NCBI GenBank assembly: GCA_045837725.1
Contig: JBEWZL010000266.1
Coordinates: forward strand, 434,001 to 498,000
Direction: 5' to 3'
DNA: 64,000 nt
DNA from: Vermamoeba vermiformis
Lineage: Eukaryota
The notes under the pieces were generated by a model. That model worked only from the letters and a program-made list of their open reading frames with translations, had not been told where the DNA came from and searched no databases. Positions 641-44,698 of this stretch are shown here, one piece after another; within the stretch, counting starts at the first letter, position 1, and each line of letters opens with the position of its first letter. A program made the position numbers and the translations under genes.

Positions 641-3600
641 ATGGACGAAAGATCGCAGGATGACATTAAGCGAGAGCTAGAGAAGCTCCAAGATTTGTTC
701 AATTCAAATCTGATCTTAAAAGAAGAGTTTGACCAAAGAAGCACTGAATTATTGTCGACAAAAAGTGTAAGATATTTATAGTTATTATTAACGATACAAT
801 CCATTCTCGGCTTGGTGTAATTTTAAATTTCCTGGTAAAATTGGCGCGGGTGTTAAAAATTATTAAAACGCTTCTATCGCATTTTAGGATGTGCACTTTT
901 AATATTACTATTATTAATAATATTTTTTAATCGCTTTTTAGGTGCAAGATCCAAAGCCGGTTTTAGCAACCACCAGCCCCAGCCCGGCAAGTAAAACTAA
1001 GAAAAAGCTGCCTAAGGATCCCACTTGCAATGAGCCTGTATGCTAGCATAATGTTTGGTTTTTTGACAAGTACTTACCGTTGCGTGGCAGGCGGAAGTGC
1101 ACGAGGATTTCAGCTGCATGTTGAATCAATCGAACATTGGCTTGAACAACAACAAGTTCTTTGTGATTCAAGTGCTCACTGATGGCTCCAAATACTTTGA
1201 ATTCGCTCGGTGGGGTCGTGTCGGGGAAAGAGGCCAATCAAAATTGACACCGTTCACCGACCGTACTGCTGCTGAACAAGCTTTCAAAAGAAGGTACGTG
1301 CTGGAACTTTCACATAATTCATTATTTTTTAACTATCAGTGGCTAATATATTCGTATCAGATTCCGTGACAAAACTGGAAACGAATGGGACCAACGAAAG
1401 AACTTTTCTGCAAAACCTGGCAAATACACGCTGCTTGAAATCGATTACGAGGATAATTCGGTAACTAATGATAATAATTCGTTCCTATTATTTTCTTACT
1501 GACGCCCTTAAAAGTCTCAATTACCTGCTCCGATGAAAGTCGAGCCTTCATCAAATCTACCTGAAGTTGTTAGAGTCGCTCTGACAGAATTGAGTGATGT
1601 CAAATTATACGAGAAAAGTAAGGTTTAGCTCAACTTGACGGTTATTGATATTTTGTTGCAGTTTTGGAGTCACACGAGATCGACGTGCGTAAGATGCCTC
1701 CCTCTAGACTTAGCAAGAATGCCATCGAAACTGCCCGCGAAATTTTGATGCAACTAAATTCTGCAGATACCGATCAGCAACGCAGGGAACTTTGCAACAA
1801 ATATTACACAGTTATTCCGCACAATTTCGGATTCCAGCTCCCACCTCTTATCACCAACGTGTATCCTCACGTAGTTAAACTCGCTGTACTTGAAGATGTT
1901 ATGGAAGCTATGCGTGTGTTGGAAAGCGCACGTGACGAACCAAATATGAATCGCCTTGACGCCCTGCTAAAGAAACTTGACTGCGACTTGGTGCCCGAAG
2001 AAATTATCGTCAGACCTTTAATAGACCAACTTGCAGGCCCTTCTGGTGTCAACCCAACCGGCAAGGTTGTTTCAGCCTTTGCTGTCAAAAAACACGACAA
2101 CACCGCCTTTGCTAAACACGACGGCAAATATAATCGACAATTGCTGTGGCTTGCGTGCTCTAGCATGGCAGCAGTACTGCTCACTTTGCATTCTGGTGCC
2201 AGAGAATACGACCGAAAGTACGGCAAAAGAGGTAAGACCATCATTTTATTTTTACATTAATTTTTGCTTCGTTCTGACTTTCTTTTTAGTTTATTTGACG
2301 CCCAACATTGAAAACGCATTCAATTATGCAAACATCCCAACTGAAGCGACTTACATGGTGCTCGCTGAAGCAGTACTCGGTAGAGAGTACGAAATCCCGG
2401 AAAATCAGCTCTCGATTCCAACGGGACATCACGACTCAGCGGTTTCAAGAGGTCCCGAGCAGTTTGAGACCGAATACATGTAAGTAATTTACTTACAATT
2501 CATCAATGCACTTGGACTAACGCTGCTTACACAAGGTTCTTTGACGGACAGAAAGTTCAAATACCTATTATTAGCGCAGTGTACAAGCGCGGCAGATTCA
2601 CTGAACACCTCATTGCGGATCCGAGCCAAGTTCGCGTTAGATACTTGGTTAAAGTTCAGCCAATTCAGAGCCCACCTGAACCTAGTTCCAATCCCGTGCC
2701 TGTATTTACGCCGAGTAGCTTTTCAGTCATGCCAAGTTTTGGTGGCCCTCAAGTTCAAACTTTAACACCGCCTACCCTTGCTGCTCAACCAGCTTCTGCT
2801 GCACGTAAACGTGTCGATCCTCAATGCAATCTGAACGGTGTAAGTATAATAATATCAAGGTGTTGTTTGTTATCAACTATGGCATTAACAAACGGTAATC
2901 TAGGTGGAAGTTTACGGAGATTTCAATTGCATGTTGTCTCTTGTGGGTGCGTTTGCCACGGCTATGAACAGCAAATTCTTCGTCATTCAGCTGCTGACTG
3001 ACGGGCGCGAATACTACGAGTTCACTCGCTGGGGTCGTATTGGCCAGTCAGGGATGTTTAAGATAGTTACGTTCGATAATGCAGCTGCAGCCGAGCAATC
3101 GTTCAAACGGAGGTTCGTTACGTGTAATATATCGAATTGTCATTTAGCTAACTTATTCGATATCAGATTCTCCGACAAAACTGGAAACGAATGGGACCAA
3201 CGAAAGCACTTCTCTGCAAAACCTGGCAAATACACGATGCTTGATATGGAATACCAGGATGATGATGTGGTAGACCTCGATAATTTGCTCACAGAAACCA
3301 AAAATGTCGCCAAGACCACAAAGACGACTGCTCCGTCTGTTTTGCAGCCACTTCAACTCCAACCAACAGTGCCTTCAGTACATAAATACAAGGTCGATTC
3401 TGAGTGCAAACTTGATGGGGTAAGTAGACAGCTACCGATCCAATGAATTTGAGCTAAAGTACTGATGCTGTGCCACAGGTTCAAGTCCACGAAGATTACG
3501 CTTGCGTCCTTAATCAAACAAACATCGCTGCAAACAGCAATCGGTTCTATATTCTACAAATGCTCACCAACCAAGCCAACAAGTTTTGGGTGTTCAGTCG

Positions 3601-6600
3601 TTGGGGCCGCGTTGGAGAAACCGGACAAAATGCCCTTCGTCCATGCGATACTTTGAACGCTGCTGTTGCGGACTTCAAGAAAAAGTAAGAAATATTGACA
3701 ATATGCTATAAGTGTGCTAATCTTATGCCGTTAATAGGTTCAAGGAAAAGACTGGCAACGATTGGGCAAGCAGAAAGAGTTTCGCGGCAGTCCCGGAAAA
3801 ATACGTGTTGCTCGAGATGGATTTTGACACGCCTGCGCCATTAGTTCAACCACAACAAAGTGCTTTTACTTTCGGAGGTCCAACGACGACGACGTCAGGT
3901 GCCCAATCCCCTGGTGGATTTTTCTTCCCACCTCAGATGAACAATAACACTGGTACATTCGGAAGCCCCGCACTCCCCACTACTTCATTGCCACTAAATC
4001 TAAACATCGGCCAACCCAATCCCACCCCTTCGTTTACATTTGGCGCAAGCTCTGCACTCCCTGCTACTTCCAGTCTGTCAACTCCAACGACAGTCGAGCC
4101 ACAATATACGTTTCCACCATCATTTGGTAGCGGAACTCCGGGTCCTTACGGCCTCCCATCTGCACCTCCACAATCGTCTTCTGCAAATAATCCAATTGAG
4201 TTCAAGTGCTTGATTATCGGTGACGGAGGTGTTGGCAAAACCACTTTTGTCACAAGACACGTAAGTGATGTAGTGCGATAGAATTTATTATACTCAGCTC
4301 TAACTTTATTATTATTACAGCAAACCGGAGAATTTACTCGTCAGTATAATCGTACGTTTGATTTTTAAAAATAGCGACCAAACTAACTTTTCAAACGTAG
4401 CCACTGTTGGAATGCGAACGACCAAAATTCCTTGGTTTACTACTCGTGGATCAATAACTTTCAATATGGTCGAAGTCGGAGGGCAACTCCAACACCGGCC
4501 AGAAAACATCGACGATATTTTGTAAGCCTCGTTTTACTATTGTTTTTTCACTATTTTGCTAACTTGGCGTTTTCAGTGTTGGAGCACAATGTGCTATTAT
4601 CATGTTCGACGTTACAAGCAGAGTAACTTACAAAAATGTTCCGCTGCATTACCGCGACGTCGTGCGAGTTTGTATGGATATTCCTGTCGTGCTTGTTGGC
4701 AACAAGGTAAAACTTTGCCTTTTTAGGAAACCAGTACTAACGATGCTTATTTCTAAGGTCGATGTGGCCGATAGAAAAGTGAAGCCTCAAACGATCACTT
4801 TCCATCGCAAAAAGGTAAGAAACTTATGTAAAATTGCCTTATTTGGACTCAACTAATGATGTTTCCGAAATAGAACTTGCAATATTATGACATTTCAGCG
4901 AAGAGCAATTATAATTACGAAAAGCCGTTCCTGTACTTAATTCGCAAATTGCTCCAGTAAGAAAATATCACAATATTTCTTGCAATTCATTGACACTAAT
5001 ACTGCGAATCTTAGTGACCCCAACGTGTACTTCGAGTCCGCACCCGTTTTATTGCCTCCCGAAATTTTACTGAACAACACTATTGCAAGTCCACTTGAAG
5101 CAGTTGACGACGATTTCGATAATGATCCGGAACTGCCTGCCGAACAGCCCGCGAATCCTCCTCCGAAGGCTTTGAGTGACATTAAAAAGGTAAATTATAT
5201 GCATCTTATTAGCAAAGAGCTAATTGCAATGTTTTTTTGCAGTTTAAAGTGTTGCTTGTTGGAGATCCGGTCGGAAAAACTTCGTTTGTGAAAAAACTGC
5301 TAGCACAACACTTCGACACCAAATACTCACGTAAGTCATCTTATATAATTTTATACGTTTTAACCTTATTTATTAAGCTACGCTTGGTGTTGAAGTTTAT
5401 TCCTTTAAAATTGAAACGAAAAAAGGCGAGAAACTCGAGTTCAATATTTGGGACACTGCTGGACAAGAGAAGTTTGGTGCATTAAGAGATGGCTATTAGT
5501 ACGTATTATTTATAATATAACGATGATCTGATATTAATACCTTGCAGTATCATGGGCAACGCAGCACTGATTTTTTATTCTGTCGAGTCACAAATAACGG
5601 CTAAAAATACCAAAAATTGGCACAGAGACGTTACCCGGGTTTGGTAAGAAAACACTCAATAATAACATTAATTATTAATATTAATATTAATTTTTACATT
5701 AGTGTCGATGTACCTATCGTAATTTGCGGAACACAAGCAGATTTGCCTGAAGAAGAACATCACGTGACTATTGAAAACTTCCCGGTTCCTTCTTTTGTAA
5801 GCCTCAAACAACATTTTTTTTCACGCACAAGGCAAGATTTTTAATTTTCTTTTGCCGAAACAGAAAGAAAAGTATCCGATGATGGAAGTATCGGCCAAGT
5901 CAAACTTGAACATTTACGAGCCATTCATTGAACTAGCGAGAAAGTTGCTCAATGATCCAGAACTCGAATTCAAAGAGAAATTTCCCTTACCAGTCCTTAA
6001 ATTCGCTGCTAAACCAACCGAACAAGGAGACAAGAAGACTACAGAAGATTCTCCGAGTAGCATCAGCCAACAATTCAACCAATTGAATTTGGGTGACGCC
6101 CCGTCTGGCCCAACCGGATTCACTTCGTTCCCAGCGGCCAACAACAGCCCGTTTTCCCCTAGCGCGGTTTCAAGTACGTTTGGTCAAGTGCCACTGATGC
6201 TAGGAAACCAACCAGCGACGTTTGGTTCGCATGTTCGATTCACCTCTTCTTCACAACTGCCAACTTCTTCTTCGTCTCCCTCGCAGTTCACCACACCTAG
6301 TGGCTTCAAACTGACCGTGTCTCCTTTCCCTCGACCAGTCGGTGGATTTACGCCGAACTCGTCTCCTTCGCAGTTCCCTCAACCAGTCAGTGGATTCACA
6401 CTGCCGAACTCGTCTCCTTCGCAGTTCCCTCAACCAGGCTTTACAATGCCTACATCTCCTGCGGCTCCTACATTCAGCTCACCTACAACAAGCGGCTTCA
6501 CAATGCCTAGCAATCCTGTTCCATTGCCGCCTACTCCAGGACCCACAGTGTCTCTTCAATCAGACGCCGCGAAAAATAGCAAGCTCACAAGTGCGTTAGA

Positions 6601-9262
6601 TTTCCTTGAAGTGGTCCAGAAAACGTTTGTCAATCGCATGTCAGTTTACCAGGCCTTTTTGGACATTATGAAGGACTTCAAATCACAACTGTAAGTTCCG
6701 AAATTCATTGATGGTATCTCATTTTAAGTTCAACGACTAACTCTGCTTTAGGATTGATACTCCAGCGGTTATCGCAAGAGTTAAAGAGCTGTTCAAAGGT
6801 CATCCCAAGTTAATTCTTGGATTCAATACGTTCTTGCCTCCTGGTTACACCATCGACAGTTCTGAACTTGAAACCGAAGAACAAGAACTAGAACAACAGA
6901 AAAGTGACGATGAAATTGACAAAGTTTTAACTGACCAACCAAAAACAGCAACAAATGTAGATTTTAATAGGGCTCACACTTATGTGGTGAAGATCAAAAA
7001 CCGCTTCGCGAACCAGCCTGAAGTCTACAAACAGTTTTTGGATATTTTGCACAACTGTCACAATCAAAAGCATCCTATTCCTGAAGTGCTCGAGCAAGTT
7101 TCTGTGCTGTTCAAAGGCCACGAAGATCTGATCGAGGGATTCAAAATATTTATACCAGAAGCCCCCACGCCTAACAAAACTGCCGAATTGGCTGTAAGTA
7201 CTGAATAATTTTATAATTCTGCTCACTTTTTCGATTTAAACGTTGCTTAGAAACTTATCGAATTGAATGTTTAATCGAATTAACTGATTTATTAAGGTAC
7301 CGCAACAGCCCGAGACTGGCGAGTGGCACCCCGTTGACAAATCGCCGAAGTTCCGCGGTGGCCAAGAACTGCGCCAATATCAAATCGATGGGCTCAACTG
7401 GCTGTTGTTCTTATGGACCCATCGTCATGGCTGTATTCTCGCAGATGAAATGGGTCTTGGCAAGACAATTCAAGCCATAGCTTTCTTGAATCACCTCGTC
7501 ACCGTCAAGTCTACTCATGGCCCGTTCTTAGTGGTAGTGCCACTTGCCACACTCTCCAACTGGCAGCGTGAGATCGAGAGTTGGACGGAAATGAGTCTTG
7601 TGTTCTATCACGGTGACAAGAATACTCGTGCCAACATCCGCAAGTCCGAGTTTTTCCGCCCAGGCACAAAAACACCAAAATTCAATGTGCTGTTGACTTC
7701 CTACGAGTTTTTGGTAACTGACAACAATTATCTCGCTGAGATTGATTGGCGCGTGGTGGTCATTGACGAGGCTCACCGAATCAAAAATTCACAGTCAAAA
7801 TTGGTGGAATCTTTGCGCCAGTACAAGTTCGATCACCGCGTGCTGCTCACTGGCACGCCCATTCAGAACAACGTTGAAGAGCTGTGGGCGCTGTTGAGCT
7901 TTATTGAACCTGCAAGGTTTGTGTCCAAAGAAGAGTTCACGGCTGAGTTTGCAGATCTGCAAGAACCTGAACAAGTCCAAAAGTTGCATAAACTCATGTC
8001 CCCTCACATATTACGCAGGTTCGTATAACAACTTTATATTAGAACGCCCGTTCAATTGGCACTAACTATGTTAATGCAGATTAAAATCGGAAGTTTTGCA
8101 AGAGAAATCCATTTCTGCGAATGTTAGCCTGAACCAACCACAGCCCTCATTGTTCGGTCAACAGCCAAACCCACCTACATTTACATTCGGCAACACAGCT
8201 CAACAACAGCCCTCATTGTTCGGTCAACAACCAAACCCGCCAACATTTACTTTCGGCAATACAACTCCTACGTTGTTCGGCACTGCAAATCAAACTTTGC
8301 CACAACCAAATCCCGTTGCTTTTACGTTTGGCAATACCAGCCAACAGCCCCCGTTGTTCGGTCAGCCAAGCCCTTCGGGATTTTCTTTTGGTGCTCCGAT
8401 GCAACAAGTCAACGCCGCACCTGGACCTGTGTTCGGTCAACTGCAACCTGTTAATACGACACCAGTAAGTTCTCTCTAGTTGTAAGTCTTCAATGTAGTT
8501 TTAACCTTTTTACGTCAATTCGCAGACGTTCAAAGTGATCGTTGTCGGTGAAGGAGGCGTTGGCAAGACATGTTTTGTTGACGGGCTGCTCGGAAAGCAA
8601 TTTGAGACTAGATACATCGGTTAGTAGTCCATTGCCTTTAGTTAGTTATCAGCACTAATAGTGGTATAACAGCTACTCTTGGTGTCAGTGTCAATAGCGT
8701 GAGCAGATCTTGCACGAACGGTAAACAAATTGTGTTCAATTTATGGGACACGGCCGGTCAAGAAAAGTTCGGAGGCCTGCGAGACGGATATTAGTATGTA
8801 GATTTTATTGTCATATTAGGAAATATTTATTAACGACAACTCTTAGTATCGGAGCAGATGCCGCGATTATCTGTTATAGTGTTGATTCTGAAGTTACAGC
8901 CAAACAAGTCAGCAAATGGCACCATGACGTTCGCCGAGTATGGTAAGTGCACTAAAATCAGATTTCCTTATTTGGACATGATTACTAAATATGGCTATTT
9001 TAGCGAGAAAGTTCCCGTTGTGCTAGTAGCGCTTAAAAAAGATAATGATCACACTTTCGCTGCCGAGAGTTTACCTTCGCTCGAACCTATTAAGGTAAGG
9101 CAATTACCATATTTGGTAATCACCCATTTAACCATGCCTTTGCAGGAGGAGGCCGTCGGTCACTTCGAAGTCAGTGTTAAAATGAATGAAGACATTAATG
9201 CGCCGTTATTGGCCCTTGCAAAGGCATTGTTGAACGATCCGAATCTGGCTTTTGACAACTAA
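641..9262 (+). CDS. Giant multidomain protein (~31 exons, ~2,250 aa): SHOCT - WGR - PARP_reg - degenerate PARP catalytic - WGR - WGR - FG-rich - Ran-like 1 - Ran-like 2 - PAH - PAH - SNF2_N (CHD-like) - FG repeats - Ran-like 3
   Basis: From ATG 641 ([20 protein letters not shown]) I traced about 30 GT..AG introns with compatible phases and no in-frame stop until TAA 9260-9262. Motifs: three xRWGR[VI]G WGR domains (~1091-1450, 2904-3255, 3479-3825); PARP_reg [14 protein letters not shown]-like [10 protein letters not shown]; Ran-type [24 protein letters not shown][AG][19 protein letters not shown]; Sin3 [38 protein letters not shown]2 [23 protein letters not shown]. Confidence 0.85.
6322..6437 (+). 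repeat. Coding tandem repeat (FP[RQ]PV[GS]GFT(L)PNSSPSQ) in the linker between Ran-like 2 and PAH1
   Basis: Near-identical units containing ccgaactcgtctccttcgcagttccctcaaccag occur at ~6353 and ~6404. Confidence 0.85.
8141..8265 (+). repeat. Coding tandem duplication of a 22-aa FG unit ([19 protein letters not shown]...)
   Basis: cagccctcattgttcggtcaaca starts at 8141 and again at 8207 (66-nt period). Confidence 0.9.
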
Positions 9263-9516
9263 AGGCACCTTTGCCATTTTATTTTTGTTGAGTTAATAAA
9301 GCTAAACTTTTGTATTGGTAAATGACCCATCTAAAGTCATATGCAAGCTATAGTAGCGATCACTTTATCGGCCTGTTTTTCTGACACGTGGATCCGGCTG
9401 AGTCTGGTGGCCGCTGGCTGTGTTATTCTGTTCTTGTGTTATTTTTTTTTTTTATAAAATAAAAAAAATATAAGATATTTTTTCTCCTCGGCAATTATTG
9501 GCAGGTACCAGCGATA

Positions 9517-10381
9517 TTATATTAACTTGCACTTTAGCTTGCCGTTCTTGACCTTCTTCTTTTTCGCATCCGCAGAATTGTGACCGGGCAATGTCTTGCG
9601 CACTTCACGTACCAAAGAGAAGAATGCCTCTTCAATGTTCTATCAAAACAAATAAATTAGATTCGATTCGCTTAAGCAAAATGTAATAAAAACGCGTACA
9701 ATACGGCGTAACGCTGAGGTTTCGAAGAAAGGCGCCTTGTATCGTCGAGCAAGCTCCTCTCCCTCAGCAGTGGTCACTTGTCTCTCGTCTTCGAGATCGG
9801 ATTTATTGCCGACAAGCACAGCAGGCACCCAATCTCGTTCCTTGGCTCTCAAAATTTGGTCGTAGAAAGAATTAACTTCATCGAAGGAACTACGGCTGGT
9901 AATAGCATAGCAGCACAAGAAACCTTGGCCTGTACGCATCTAGACGACAATCGTAAGTATCGACATAAGTGGATAATAGTATTTCTTACGTATTGGTCAA
10001 GCATAACAGAGAAGTCCTCTGGAAGAAAAAAAGGTTCAATATTTAAATCCCGAATTAATTATTATTGAAATAGTAAAATCAGCGAGCAAAAATTACCGTG
10101 TCGCGCAGTGTCTGTAATCTCCAATAAGCAAATTTCATCGTCAACGTGGAATTGTTTGCGATATCTAGAATTTCAAAGTTTAGTTACCCCTTTATAAAGT
10201 CCACATTTAGGCGTCTAGGCGTCAAAGATATTACTATAAAATTAGGTTTAATTATGTGCACTTACGAGTCTTCAATGGTAGGATCGTAAGAACTGATAAA
10301 GTGGTTGGAAATGAGCTGGATCGTGCAAGCGGATTTACCAACACCTTCAGCACCAAGGACAACGATCTTGTATTCGGTCAT
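9517..10381 (-). CDS. ras: Ras-family small GTPase, 5 exons, with non-canonical G12E/G60R/Q61H and CAAX box CKLI
   Basis: Spliced product: [78 protein letters not shown]...GNKSD...[23 protein letters not shown]...[15 protein letters not shown]. The effector loop YDPTIEDSY is intact. Confidence 0.95.
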
Positions 10382-10553
10382 TATTATTATTGATGCTACT
10401 ATACCTTGTGCCATAATAATGGTTAAAAATGGTTATGTTGTTCGGTAAGAAATAAACGCGCTCTGATTGGCCCAAATAAAAATAAATCAAAGTGTCATGT
10501 GTCACCCTCTAACGTTACGTAAACAAAAACATTTATATTACATACTTTGGCTA

Positions 10554-13066
10554 TTAAATGCGCTCAGCGTAGTTAGTCGGGAACCAACCAGTCACACCGT
10601 TCTTAGTGGCCGTGAACCACGTGTCATCCGCGTTATCAATCTCCAAAATGTCACCTTCCATCACGTGCAACTCGCCAGGATTTTCAGCAGGGAATTCGTA
10701 CAACACTCGCACACGTGGCTTTTGAGGTGCTAATCATAACGTTAATATACAGCAAGATGGATTAAAAATTTCCAGATTTGGATGTGCGTACCGTGAGGCG
10801 GAGGAGTGGTCGGTGGCATAGGTCTGTTGCCACCAGGAGTAGGCAGTGTGCGTGTAGGAGGCTGAGGAGTACCACCAGTATTCATACCAGGCGGTGTCGG
10901 GGGCTGCTGTCTCGGAGGCACCATCTTGGGGTTACCACCGCCCATTCCGCCCGAGAGACGTCGCTCTGAAGGTTGATGGCTAGGCAAGGGCAATCCTCCT
11001 CCTTGATTAGGCACGACATTAGGATTAGCACCCATTCCTGATAAGCGGTTAGAAGATCCGTGTGTTGGAATATTAGCCATGCCTCCATTGGAGACACCGC
11101 GAGGAGGTGGCGCCGGGCCGCCGGGCTGCATCATGCCTGTCGAGGGCTGGTGTGGGACACCTAAGACACGTGTCAGAATGTAGTTTACAGCAGAAAAAGG
11201 AGATCCATATTTAAAAAATAATGGGCACCTCCGGCGGAGCTCGAATCCGCGTCTCCGGAGTGAAAGAACGGTATTCTAACCAACTAAACTACAGTGGCAC
11301 CCAAAAAACAATTTAGCCCCAAATGGACCAATCAGCGTCAAGCAAAAAAAAGTAATGAGGGCGACGTGATTCGAACACGCAACCATCGGACCTGGAATCC
11401 GCCGCTCTACCGTTGGAGCTACGCCCCCTCACTTGAAAGCGAGCAACCGAGAACAAACGAAGTCGTCAAAAAGAACGAGCGCATGCTCGGATCTACGTTG
11501 CCAGAAGTTCAACTTACCAAAGCCAGGCTGAGGAGCTCCGTAGCCGGGTTGAGGGGCGCCATAACCAGGTTGAGGAGCGCCGTAGCCAGGTTGTACGCCA
11601 CCATGTCCAGGTTGAGGAGAAACACCACCGTGTGTTGGTTGCGGGTGATGAACGGCACCGCCAGGACCTGGTGGGGGAGGAGGTGGGGGAGGGGCAGATC
11701 CGCCACCGAGGGTTGGTTGCGTGGGAGGAGGCAAGGGATGTGCTGAAGGTTGATGAGTAATCTGTGGCTGTGAAGGTGCGCCTCCTGCTCGATAAAGATC
11801 AGCTATGGACACCTGATAAAACGATGGCGCGTGTCAAACTTACCGCCGCCACCTTGCTGTTGTCTCAATTGTGCCAGTTCTGAATCGATTTGACCAATCT
11901 GCTGGTTGCTGACTTGAGCACTCTTAGCATCGCCTGATCGTTCGTAGGCTTTAGACATTGAATCCAAAGCTTCTCGTTGTTTCATCAAGGATTGGATCTT
12001 GGCGTCAACCTCTGCTGGTGACAAGTGAGCATTCGACGCTGGCTTGCCGCTTGATGGTGCAGAGACGTGGGCTACTGGCACATTCTGCGTGCATTAATTC
12101 ATTAGAATACTTGCCTAATAAGGAAATATTGCAAAAAGTATCGAGGCCAAAAAGTCAAAAAAAATTGCGTTTAAACTCTTCCTCGTTACAAAATAAATAT
12201 GACAATCAATACTTACAGCTACGAATGCCAATTTGATCTTAATATCGCCCGTGACGACGTCCTTGTCTTTGCGTCGCATTAAAGGGTACCACTTTTCTAC
12301 GGGATTGCCAGTGCTATAAGCCTCGTGCAAATCACTTGATGGAATTGAAAATTCGCCCATAAAATCATGGCCACCAAATCTGGATTATATTTCGATATTA
12401 GAGGCTATTTTTAGACTATGTAGCGTAAGAACTGAATTTAGTTTGTTTGGATCCGTACTTATCCCAATCCTTGCACTTCATATCGACGCGCATGCGATCG
12501 TCAACATTTCTATTTATAATTCGGTTAATTGATCGTTCATGAAAATGAAAGAGCTTGCTAATTTCATCTTTTTACTTACTCGAATGAAAGAGACTCGTTC
12601 CATTGAGGATTCTATATTAAAATAAATAATGAGAATATTTCTCGAGCGAAATATATTCAAAAGGAGCAGTAGAATAGAATTCCAAAAATACCCGGATTTA
12701 CGCTGCGTAAATAAATGATAATTTCAATTGCTAGCTGAATGTGGTCTATTTTCCATACCAGTGTTTGCATAATTTTCTTCGTCTTCTTTTTTTGGGCACC
12801 GACCGTTACGATAACGTAAGGATCTGAAAAACCTATAATTTGGAAGCAATGATTGAGTAATTATATTTGAAATAATATTCTAATATTATTTATTACCTGT
12901 CTTATCTTTTGCGGCAAGATCTCGGCCTTCAATAACTACACAATAAAAATAAATTTGTTATTGAAGGTCTGGTATAGTATGTATGTCATCCTGCCTCTTA
13001 TATATACGTCTAAAATATAATTAAATATTATCAGAGCTTACCAGTAACTGTTAAAACTTTCGCCAT
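10554..13066 (-). CDS. C2 domain - HR1-like coiled coil - Pro/Gly-rich region - SH3 protein
   Basis: N-terminal C2 (VIEGRDLAAKDKTGFSDPYV...TLNPQWNE...DWDKFGGHDFMGE), helical segment KIQSLMKQREALDSMSKAYE, polyproline and PQPGYGA repeats, and a last exon encoding SH3 (RVLYEFPAENPGELHVMEGDIL...TWF...GWFPTNY*). Confidence 0.88.
11226..11298 (-). tRNA. tRNA-Glu(TTC)-like gene with imperfect stems (possible pseudogene), intronic
   Basis: GCCACTG TA GTTTAGTTGGTTAGAAT A CCGTT CTTTCAC TCCGG AGAC GCGGA TTCGAGC TCCGC CGGAGGT G. The T arm pairs fully, but there are two anticodon-stem mismatches and one acceptor-stem mismatch. A T-run lies downstream. Confidence 0.65.
11356..11428 (-). tRNA. tRNA-Trp(CCA), intronic
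   Basis: GGGGGCG TA GCTC CAACGGTA GAGC G GCGGA TTCCAGG TCCGA TGGTT GCGTG TTCGAAT CACGT CGCCCTC A folds as a full cloverleaf and is followed by a T8 Pol III terminator. Confidence 0.93.
11523..11617 (-). repeat. 21-nt coding tandem repeat (PQPG[YH]G[AG])
   Basis: Translation shows PQPGHGGVQPGYGAPQPGYGAPQPGYGAPQPG. Confidence 0.85.
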
Positions 13067-42122: not shown

Positions 42123-44495
42123 TTAAAAATGCATGAAAATCGCACCACCTAATACAGAAACGCTTAAGGAAAGAACGCTTGTCACACTAGCTACACCGTT
42201 ATTCATCGAGCTTCTTGGACTCGTCAAAGGACTGCTTGGGTCTTGTCCAGCTCCATCGGTGATCGCAGGCACTGCAAGTTGATTTCCGCAATTGCAGGCA
42301 TCACTTGGTCTTGGAACATTAGCACCTGTGTCGACAGGAGTTCCATCGAACTTTGCAATGTAATATCCTCCTCCACCAGTGCCAGCTACGATAATTCCTT
42401 CATTTCCTGGTTTCGCGCGCAATGTGTTAATCGTTTTCATGCCTAATCCGTCGGCGGCGAGCGTCCACGTTGGAGCATCACTTAAGAGATTCTGTGTGGT
42501 CCAAGCACCTGTGGCATCGATCACATCATCAAAAGGGTCTTTGCGAGTACCAATAACTGCTTGATTAGGGTTCGCTGGGTTGATAGCAATGTCGCTGACG
42601 TATTCGATGTTGGGAGATCCGCCCCAGCCAACAACTCTCTTCCACGTCCAAGAAGATGAGGCACTATTGTAAGTAGCTCTCCACACTCCATCTTGTCCTT
42701 GGAAATATCCACGAGCAACGGCATAAAGTCGATCAGGCGTGGTCGGATCCATTTCTAGACGAGTGTCACCGTATTGCCAGTTCTTGGGACTGTTGGTCAT
42801 CAGACTGAAGTCGACGCCATTAGAAGTGTAGTAGATGCCTCTGCGGCCAGATAAGAAGAATTCTGTTGGATTGTTTGACCCACGTGAGACGAACCATAGC
42901 AGGCCAGATCCGGTGTTCGCGTCAACGGTATCGTTCAAGGGAATTCGTTGCCAAGAGCTGCCACCATTACTAGTAGTATATAGTCGTCCACTAGCAGTCA
43001 TCCAGACTTTGTTAGCATCAGTTGGGTGCACTAAAATGCCTTGAGGGTACATCCATGCGTTGTACTTGTCCAGATCCGACGGGTAACCTGCTTCACTCCA
43101 AGTCAATCCACCATCAATAGACTTCGCAACGCTGTTGCCATAAGTCCATCCAGGTTGCCCACGAGTCGCATACGCCGTTGTGCCATCAGTGGTAAATGTC
43201 ATGTCCGTGTACCCGCCAAAAGGAGGTAAACCGCTCTTCGCTGCACTTTTCCAGGTCTGGAAATTATCACTGCTGATCCATAATCCATCGTCCATAGCGA
43301 AAGTGAACGATCGGTCGGTATTCACAGGGTTCCACTTGAAGTTGATAGCGACATAGCCAGAATATCCACGTCCTCGCCAGAAATTTGACGATTGGTTAAA
43401 TGGTCGATAAGAACTGCTATCAATAATGGTTTTGCATCCATCTTCAGAGCGGAATATTGTCACCCATGTAGAGATCAGAACACGACTGTCATTCCTTGGG
43501 TCAATGGTGACTTGTCCTGCTTCAAAAGTGAAGTCGAATGCATTTGCAGGTCGGTAGATTTCGGTCCAATTGCCGCCGTTCACTGAACGGAACAGCCTTT
43601 GTTTGTCTTTGTTCATCGCGTAGACCGTGCTCGGATTGCTAGGTGAAACTGCTACATGACGCCAGTTGCCAGATAAAGGAAGCCCGTTGTTGAATGGAGC
43701 CCAACTGTCTCCGCCATTGCTCGTTTTATAGACCCCAGATCCACCAACGGTGACGTACGCAATGTTCGGATCCGTTGAATGAGCTGCAATGGACTCGATG
43801 AACATTGACGGTAAACCAGTGCTGCTAGACTGCCAAGTCCTACCACCATCTTTTGAACGATAGATGCCCTTGTTCAGCACCGAAGCGAGAATAGTCTGAG
43901 AAGTAGATCCGGCCAAGAATGTTGCCGATGCAATGTTGCCTGTCGCGTTGGCGGGTTGAGCAAGCATTGTCCAATTTGCACCACCATTCAGTGATTCGTA
44001 GACGAGACCTTGGTTGCGCAGAGAACTTTCACTTGATCTTCTGCGAGTCCCAAAGAACGACAAAAGTCGGTTAACATTGGTCGGATCAAACAACACAACC
44101 TGCGTAAACGCAGTGAAAGTGGCAAAATCACCATTAGAAGGCATGCCATTACGCATAGAGATCCAATTCTTGCCACCATCTGTTGAACGATAAGGGCCAT
44201 TACCGGTGCCAACCCATACTGTGTTCGGATCTGTCGGATGCCACGTGAACTCTTCAATCATGTAGTTCTGCAAGCCTATCATATTCTGGTCCCAAGTAGC
44301 ACCTCCGTCTAATGATCTTGCAATCCCGAGAATATCTCCGCCGGCTAAAACAACGTTCGAAGCGTGAGGACTGATGGACGCTGCAGTGACGGCACCACCG
44401 ACTCCTGGTTCATATAAAGGACGCCACTGAAGCTGAGCCACAACGATAGAAGCTTGAAATAGGCAAAGCACGAGAGCTGTCAGCAGTACACGCAT
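42123..44495 (-). CDS. Intronless secreted or anchored BNR/Asp-box beta-propeller protein (GH74 xyloglucanase/sortilin-like), 790 aa
   Basis: Single ORF with a signal peptide, many S.DGG.[TNS]W Asp-boxes, GGDILG near the N-terminus (GH74-like position), AMDD, and a C-terminal hydrophobic tail. Confidence 0.88.
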   Translation of the reverse strand: MRVLLTALVLCLFQASIVVAQLQWRPLYEPGVGGAVTAASISPHASNVVLAGGDILGIARSLDGGATWDQNMIGLQNYMIEEFTWHPTDPNTVWVGTGNGPYRSTDGGKNWISMRNGMPSNGDFATFTAFTQVVLFDPTNVNRLLSFFGTRRRSSESSLRNQGLVYESLNGGANWTMLAQPANATGNIASATFLAGSTSQTILASVLNKGIYRSKDGGRTWQSSSTGLPSMFIESIAAHSTDPNIAYVTVGGSGVYKTSNGGDSWAPFNNGLPLSGNWRHVAVSPSNPSTVYAMNKDKQRLFRSVNGGNWTEIYRPANAFDFTFEAGQVTIDPRNDSRVLISTWVTIFRSEDGCKTIIDSSSYRPFNQSSNFWRGRGYSGYVAINFKWNPVNTDRSFTFAMDDGLWISSDNFQTWKSAAKSGLPPFGGYTDMTFTTDGTTAYATRGQPGWTYGNSVAKSIDGGLTWSEAGYPSDLDKYNAWMYPQGILVHPTDANKVWMTASGRLYTTSNGGSSWQRIPLNDTVDANTGSGLLWFVSRGSNNPTEFFLSGRRGIYYTSNGVDFSLMTNSPKNWQYGDTRLEMDPTTPDRLYAVARGYFQGQDGVWRATYNSASSSWTWKRVVGWGGSPNIEYVSDIAINPANPNQAVIGTRKDPFDDVIDATGAWTTQNLLSDAPTWTLAADGLGMKTINTLRAKPGNEGIIVAGTGGGGYYIAKFDGTPVDTGANVPRPSDACNCGNQLAVPAITDGAGQDPSSPLTSPRSSMNNGVASVTSVLSLSVSVLGGAIFMHF

Positions 44496-44698
44496 TGCGA
44501 ATAGTCTGGTGGAAATTTTTGTTATACTCGGTTAACATTTATAGGGTTATTACCTGCGTCGTGTTCTTGCGATGAAATGTGAATGTAAGATTAATGTTAA
44601 AACAAAAACATCGAAATTAACAAACAAGACACGAATGACAGGGGTTTAGCTTACCGATAAAAATACACAGAAAGGCCAACTATTGAGTGATAATTGCT

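Follow-up and report, generated by a model that had tools for sequence, protein, structure and literature searches.

A Ras gene of Vermamoeba vermiformis raises the question of what a Ras protein can be when the residues of its GTPase switch are replaced and its other Ras features are kept. The gene lies in a stretch of 64,000 nucleotides (the window; contig JBEWZL010000266.1, positions 434,001 to 498,000 of the forward strand) and encodes Glu12, Arg60, and His61 at the places of Gly12, Gly60, and Gln61. A preliminary description, made from the letters of the window, had taken the product for a hydrolysis-deficient Ras with substitutions at oncogenic hotspots, controlled by expression or turnover, or for a further decoy. 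We confirmed that this natural E12/R60/H61 Ras exists. The explanation that we favor, with slightly less than even confidence, is that the regulated GTPase switch was lost in a duplicate of a canonical Ras, which selection nevertheless kept, likely as a damper or bias on the signalling of its parent.

Gene structure and read support

The gene runs from position 10381 to 9517 on the minus strand and consists of five exons with an open frame of 191 codons; its four introns (101, 78, 50, and 60 nt) are all of the GT-AG type (Table 1). A Pfam Ras match covers exons 1 and 4. The product has the sequence features of the Ras subfamily, namely the effector loop YDPTIEDSY, G1 GxxxxGKS, G2 Thr35, G4 NKxD, and G5 SA, as well as a Ras-type C-terminus with a polybasic tail and a CaaX box (a predicted prenylation site). 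The canonical-switch residues G12, G60, and Q61 are absent, because the P-loop reads GAEGVGKS and the G3 motif reads DTARH. These two motifs, the polybasic tail, and the terminal CKLI were all found as first described. The Ras numbering, which had been called exact, holds to about residue 120 and is one higher beyond it, so that SAL occupies residues 146–148.

Table 1. Positions of the parts of the variant Ras gene in the window.
Feature	Positions	Strand	Remarks
Exon 1 (residues M1–S39): E12-bearing P-loop, helix 1, the larger part of switch I	10266..10381	-	Intron position as in parent locus L002
Codon 12, GAA (Glu); parent GGA (Gly)	10346..10348	-	X1 contig, 0 other letters; E12 also in P0122
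Exon 2: interswitch and G3 motif DTARH (V44F, N45H, A50I, D54E, L56T, G60R, Q61H)	10097..10164	-	
Codons 60-61, CGA CAC (Arg, His)	10098..10103	-	Orthologue L033: Arg, Tyr
Exon 3: switch II helix, Y64F, A66V, R68L	9990..10018	-	L033 has the same letters; X4 the same at the three places shown
Exon 4: beta4 to G5, with NKSD and SAL	9700..9939	-	SAL inherited from parent
Codons 123-170 (helix 4, strand 6, G5, helix 5; intron 4 inside)	9583..9786	-	48 residues identical to parent
Exon 5: helix 5, polybasic tail, CaaX box CKLI, stop	9517..9639	-	
In-frame upstream ATG (10414), candidate 11-residue N-terminal extension	10382..10414	-	Not in parent; P0122 keeps 10/11 residues
Promoter-like block with CCAAT word	10450..10504	-	Common to parent (51/55 identical)

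Contigs assembled from the DNA run X1 span codons 12, 60, and 61 at a depth of about 340–380 and agree with the window without any other letter. X1 may be the source sample of the assembly itself, and we therefore regard it as a check of the assembly and not as an independent isolate. The sole difference between the X1 contigs and the window is the lack of 17 bases in intron 1 (10165–10265), which suggests two alleles or an assembly difference; intron 1 of the metagenomic orthologue L033 is likewise shorter (85 nt). Alternative splicing that would restore DTAGQ was ruled out, since no suitable other donor is present.

Origin by duplication of a canonical Ras gene

We searched the genome (43 Mb in 309 contigs) for related genes. 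Exon 4 gave 78 matches, and at the DNA level the gene had a second match at one locus only, L002 on contig C306, with 71% identity over about 1 kb. L002 (1316–2225, minus strand) is a canonical Ras with G12, G60, and Q61, the motif SAL, and the end CKLM. The two products share 152 of 191 residues, all four introns of the variant are at L002 positions, and a 15-mer taken from the promoter block occurs exactly twice in the genome, upstream of the variant and of L002. Because L002 alone matches as DNA, and because the introns and the upstream block are shared, the window gene is a DNA-level duplicate: the variant is a lineage-specific duplicate of a canonical Ras, about 1 kb long, with promoter and introns included. 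In a tree of 19 rows, the variant and parent rows formed one clade (100/98), within which the two variants stood on a long shared branch.

The hotspot changes are three of 29 G-domain changes from the parent, the others including V44F, D54E, L56T, Y64F, A66V, R68L, and V103A. The SAL motif had been listed among the departures from Ras as a replacement of SAK. The letters are right, but SAL is inherited from L002, is carried by the orthologues, and occurs in 4 of 110 homologues; it is thus not a trait of the variant and was ruled out as a lesion. The other 106 of the 110 homologues have Lys at this position. In addition to SAL, L002 has a one-residue insertion near position 94, and both are fixed in its orthologues.

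Occurrence of the substitutions in other Ras proteins

G12, G60, Q61, and Y64 were present in all 110 full-length homologues examined (170–260 residues, with shorter and longer matches left out), and the named ones among them were largely amoebozoan. Within the genome itself, the best 30 of the 78 matches contained 26 readable P-loops, 15 of which were without G12; many of these loci are Rab-like, where the absence of G12 is normal. Two loci whose switch I is of the Ras or Rap type, as read from tblastn pieces and not from full gene models, combine V12 with T61 (L009; G000:C63, match 1501–1725) and A12 with H61 (L015; G000:C232, match 1501–1671), and both keep G60. These examples, together with the 15 of 26 P-loops, indicate that changes at positions 12 and 61 are not rare in this genome. 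In regards to position 60, the glycine was kept in 19 of the 20 clearly read G3 motifs from the same best 30 of 78 matches (four more motifs, misaligned or doubtful, stand outside the 20), and the exception was the variant gene.

Two Ras-like domains or genes were observed within 3 kb of each other at several loci (L015, L022, and, on contigs C294 and C208 of G000, L018, L019, and L030). The 58.5–63 kb region of C208 contains a cluster of at least four Ras matches, several with altered P-loops.

Orthologues of the variant and of its parent

Among 78 loci obtained in a scan of metagenomes, we recognized one orthologue of the variant (L033) and two of the parent (L031 and L032); the other 75, which matched at 59% or lower or only in part, were left out of the study. 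L033 is a true, syntenic orthologue, which runs on into the same Ran-fusion gene at 83–89% identity. It reads DTARY at G3 and keeps F44, H45, I50, R60, F64, V66, and L68, and it has I36L in switch I and two inserted residues in switch II; the contig begins at codon 30, so that position 12 is outside it. At codon 143 of L033, a run of T appears to lack 1 nt, which would shift the frame. This frameshift is probably an assembly error, because codons 124–170 differ from the window by 0 non-synonymous and 10 synonymous changes, mostly downstream of the supposed frameshift, because a second isolated +1 is present on this contig, in the PAH exon of the neighbouring gene, and because the frame is open across codon 143 in P0129 and P0130, two exon-4 products of the variant type.

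P0122, a product of exon 1, keeps E12 and the upstream extension and has V29 and D30, as in the ancestor. The NCBI records of P0122 and P0130 each consist of one contig with a length of 2666, so that the two are probably the same gene. If so, E12 would be kept in a more parent-like lineage, which differs from the window in 12 of 81 exon-4 columns. A low-depth orthologue in a water-metagenome run (X4) keeps F64, V66, and L68; it is unreadable at positions 12, 60, and 61, and codon 12 is near the contig end. In the protein collection, no full-length predicted variant protein was found among the best 120 of 643 matches of 141–2000 residues. The orthologues of the parent (L031, P0001, P0121, P0131, and P0132) differed from L002 by 1–4 exon-4 residues.

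In regards to persistence of the three residues, E12 thus recurs in P0122 and R60 recurs in L033, where the linkage to the Ran-fusion gene is also kept, but position 61 is either His or Tyr. Switch II drifts among the orthologues (H or Y at 61, the two-residue insertion, T or M at 56), a pattern that would fit a new function and relaxation equally. Selection for R60 and E12 themselves does not follow from one orthologue each (for R60 at dS 0.34).

Selection on the variant and distribution of the changes

The variant and L002 are separated by a dS of 0.70 with an omega of 0.17 (0.10–0.27). For the window and L033 (143 of 161 residues identical), dS was 0.34 and omega 0.16 (0.08–0.29), with 20 non-synonymous and 28 synonymous differences. 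In a codon model of four sequences (residues 1–167), omega was 0.157 on the variant branches and 0.015 on the parent branches (p 1e-6), and omega = 1 was rejected on the variant branches (p 1e-9). For residues 1–122 alone, omega was 0.27 (p 2e-4 against neutrality), and on the tip branches over the same residues it was 0.35 (p 0.012). These results indicate that the variant evolves about ten times faster than its parent, yet under purifying selection.

All 29 G-domain changes fall in residues 6–122, and none in residues 123–170. Between the variant and the parent, codons 124–170 contain 15 synonymous differences and identical residues. A permutation test with correction for scanning gave p 7e-4 for the invariance of 123–170, a block that was picked after the data were seen; P0129 has one change, at residue 123. 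Gene conversion was ruled out as the cause of the block, because its synonymous divergence is not lower (dS 0.65 vs 0.70). Also unchanged in the variant are G10, G13–S17, F28, residues 31–43 (switch I), D57, N116, K117, and D119. Across the 110 canonical homologues, conservation was highest in residues 1–86 (mean 0.96), and residues 123–167 formed the least conserved third (0.82). The pattern of change in the variant is therefore the reverse of the variation in canonical Ras.

Biochemical properties expected from KRAS

A close model of the variant is KRAS G12D/G60R, a human protein with two substitutions made in the laboratory (PDB 9C3Z, cited in 10.1101/2024.10.22.618529), which likewise combines an acidic residue 12 and Arg60 on a Ras scaffold; the variant is natural, carries H61 and a rewritten switch II in addition, and has been kept by selection. 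According to that preprint, the double mutant, in which G60R acts as a suppressor of G12D, was crystallized with GDP, shows neither intrinsic GTPase activity nor NF1 binding, undergoes SOS-mediated exchange below the intrinsic rate of G12D, and loses PI3Kgamma binding with weaker but real binding to the RAF1-RBD. The first claim of hydrolysis deficiency is well supported by this analogy, and G60R is indeed listed among RASopathy germline alleles in 10.1101/153726.

Energetic data for single KRAS substitutions lead in the same direction. In PMC10866706 (Table S5), G60R has ddG values of +0.29 (fold), +0.77 (RAF1), +1.67 (PIK3CG), +1.66 (RALGDS), and +0.71 kcal/mol (SOS1), as well as +2.38 kcal/mol for the GTP-state DARPin K55 and −0.83 kcal/mol for the GDP-state DARPin K27; with G60R alone, every effector and the GTP-state binder are thus bound less well, and the GDP-state binder is bound better. 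In the same data, the single changes G12E and Q61H leave effector binding nearly as it was or improve it slightly. The framing as an oncogenic-hotspot Ras points the wrong way, since G60R was isolated as a G12D suppressor and favours the GDP-state binder; by analogy with KRAS, the effect of G60R would dominate and an off-like shape would be favoured.

Fifteen of the 29 changes were mapped onto KRAS, 14 with the same starting residue and T50I standing for A50I. Summed over these, ddG was −0.4 (RAF1), +0.5 (RALGDS), +1.2 (SOS1), +2.0 (PIK3CG), and +3.5 kcal/mol (folding), where many single values are of low confidence and the additivity of human KRAS values in another protein is a rough guide only. 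The largest single folding cost was not over 0.52, but the folding sum, if the values add up, counts against the favoured explanation. The interface of Ras with its effectors is treated in PMC5147862; a list of SOS interface residues was not found in the literature search.

On these grounds, the variant would fold and bind guanine nucleotide, and E12, R60, and H61 would leave it unable to hydrolyze GTP. It is expected to be deaf to GAPs and largely to GEFs, to have lost PI3K-type partners that depend on switch II, and to keep weak binding through switch I (RBD-type). It may then reach the same membrane as the parent in a fixed state, its output set only by the amount made, and may occupy switch-I binders or a partner of helices 4 and 5 without the full output of the parent. 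Judged by the KRAS analogy, the non-cycling biochemistry is highly probable; the role as damper or bias is the less certain step. Ras-activated PI3Ks are described as the main Ras effectors in amoeba macropinocytosis, where they drive feeding cups (PMC6304742), and in an amoeba the variant would be more likely to damp or redirect the output of the parent than to mimic an oncogene.

An ERas-like Ras, constitutively active and proof against GAPs, which loads GTP spontaneously and, when expressed, drives a narrowed set of switch-I effectors, is an alternative that we consider unlikely although several observations fit it. In KRAS, effectors bind slightly better when G12E or Q61H is the only substitution, the mapped changes other than G60R sum to −1.1 (RAF1) and −1.2 kcal/mol (RALGDS), which offsets much of the G60R effect, and the residues that chiefly contact RAF1 (I36, E37, D38, and Y40; PMC10866706) are intact in the variant. 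KRAS G60R has been described, in PMC5415020 citing Gremer 2011, as GTP-stuck and unable to engage effectors, GAPs, and GEFs, and activated Ras stimulates feeding by macropinocytosis in Dictyostelium (PMC6304742). Against these points, G60R suppresses G12D and abolishes binding to PI3K, the main effector of macropinocytosis; it favours the GDP-like shape in cells (PMC10866706); and in Rac it is a loss-of-function allele (PMC5415020).

Relation to known non-cycling GTPases

Apart from its 29 changes and candidate N-terminal extension, the variant is of the canonical RasG/KRAS type represented by L002 and the orthologues P0001, P0121, and L031, with which it has switch I, SAL, helices 4 and 5, and the polybasic CaaX tail in common. 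ERas, which has a substitution at G12, is constitutively active, and both ERas and DIRAS are natural hotspot variants. Rnd, RhoH, MRAS, ERas, and DIRAS mostly keep G60 and are effector-competent. In contrast to these proteins, the variant is without G60 and is predicted to be in an off-like or biased state, and its parent is still 80% identical.

Established non-cycling small GTPases are Rnd, RhoH, RhoBTB, RGK, and MRAS; Rnd and RhoH bind GTP but are enzymatically inactive, and the RGK proteins depart from the GDP/GTP switch (PMC11733253). Most of these proteins are old and far from their ancestors. The RGK proteins (Rad, Gem, Rem1, and Rem2) resemble the variant in that the G3 glycine is replaced (DXWE for DXXG; PMC4081519), but their switch I is unconserved according to the same paper and they form an old animal family, whereas the variant is a young duplicate with a perfect switch I, DTARH, and a CaaX box. 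Membership in RGK was ruled out by this difference in G3 and switch I. By descent the variant is a Ras, and its sequence and selection patterns would place it among the pseudo-GTPases.

We found no report of a natural Ras with the E12/R60/H61 pattern among the matches listed from the open-access literature. The variant is a natural counterpart of the KRAS G12D/G60R suppressor, and with the parent (80% identical) in one genome with it and with orthologues of intermediate form, the path from switch to pseudo-switch can be put in order and assayed step by step. How GTPases control signalling without switching has been called an open question in PMC11733253. A bolder form of the explanation, in which the variant is a young pseudo-GTPase and a dominant regulator of its own parent, with switch II dismantled and the face of helices 4 and 5 invariant, is speculative, and we give it a low probability. 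If true, the helix 4-5 face would carry a selected interaction (pairing of parent and variant, a scaffold, or a pathogen protein), and the gene would be a natural test for a partner of helices 4 and 5 and for signalling by GTPases that do not switch.

Expression and the possibility of decay

We examined two RNA runs (X14 and X16; 94 and 32 reads at 88% likeness). No read was found on the tail of the variant (9480–9571) or on exons 1 and 2, all reads sit at places open to cross-mapping from the parent, and at position 9625 the letter of the parent was seen in 106 of 106 reads. X14 and X16 carry the same species label and come from a different strain, as indicated by loose read ends that enter a parent-type tail unlike that of L002, and this strain may lack the gene. 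If it has the gene, the level of the variant was under about 3% of that of the parent in these cultures. The RNA result counts against constant expression and is compatible with stage-specific expression or with absence of the gene there; the conserved promoter block would argue for expression. For the control by expression that was first suggested, no variant-type RNA read was found in these runs of another strain.

These data bear on a second alternative, a partly relaxed duplicate in slow decay, in which the parent suffices for the task, what constraint is left serves only against misfolding, and the variant has little function or is silent in some strains. Besides the lack of variant reads, this reading draws on an omega ten times that of the parent, with 0.35 on the tip branches over residues 1–122 (p only 0.012 against neutrality), on the apparent frameshift in L033, and on changes that are nearly blind to conservation: mean conservation was 0.89 at changed and 0.90 at unchanged positions, and positions conserved at 95% or more took 13 of 20 changes against an expectation of 69 of 86 (p 0.06). 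Moreover, the divergent RasX, RasY, and RasZ of Dictyostelium are without an obvious mutant phenotype (PMC6304742). However, frame, splice sites, promoter block, and CaaX box have all survived a dS of 0.7 from the parent, codons 124–170 show no non-synonymous change between the window and L033, and the frameshift itself is weakened by the second isolated +1 on that contig and by the in-frame P0129 and P0130. We consider decay improbable on balance. If the variant were silent or redundant, it would simply add to the drifting genes of a large protist Ras family in which changes at 12 and 61 are common.

Neighbouring genes

The gene is 254 bp from the stop codon of the Ran-fusion gene and 172 bp from the gene on its other side, and the neighbours of the parent L002 are different ones. 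On the plus strand, positions 1649–9262 contain PARP-regulatory, WGR, FG-like, three Ran-like, PAH, and partial SNF2 segments in a row, which may form one gene, larger than a Ran fusion. The P-loops of the three Ran-like segments are increasingly altered. L033 carries the orthologous stretch of 3553–9400 at 85–89% identity. The 3' end of this neighbour is single-copy in the assembly, and X1 has a second, diverged contig over 9250–9384. The tail-to-tail distance of about 250 bp was correctly described at first, but a meaningful link does not follow from it: the gaps are ordinary, synteny is expected in L033, and a special functional link between the variant Ras and the Ran fusion is unsupported.

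This neighbourhood is the background of a third alternative, according to which the variant is a decoy for pathogen proteins that attack Ras, with the recognized surfaces kept and the signalling dropped, like the altered Ran domains next to it. The retention of switch I, helices 4 and 5, and the membrane anchor together with the loss of the switch would fit, as would a neighbour in which PARP-regulatory, WGR, Ran-like, PAH, SNF2, and FG-repeat segments are strung together and which adjoins the gene in L033 as well. Positive selection was not seen, omega being below 1 in every partition of the four sequences; the gene is unfused to any sensor or executor; the flanking gaps measure 170–250 bp on either side, and at the small distance of L033 synteny is expected; and no report of an amoeba Ras decoy was found in the open-access literature among the 15 of 41 matches listed. 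The proposal of a further decoy has no positive evidence in its favour, and we regard it as very unlikely. A sequencing or gene-model artefact is scarcely credible: each hotspot change is only one or two bases from the parent codon and X1 may not be independent, but X1 agrees at a depth over 300, P0122 (E12) and L033 (R60) are independent, and the introns are those of the parent.

Two further genes of the window were observed. On the minus strand, positions 10554–11833 and upstream encode proline-rich stretches and a C-terminal SH3 domain, in the gene that ends 172 bp before the start of the variant Ras. Positions 42123–44531, also on the minus strand, hold an intron-free frame of 802 codons with a signal-like start and repeated S.DGG.TW words, which we take to resemble a beta-propeller of the sialidase or xyloglucanase type; such a frame is unusual in this intron-rich genome, and this one is possibly of bacterial origin.
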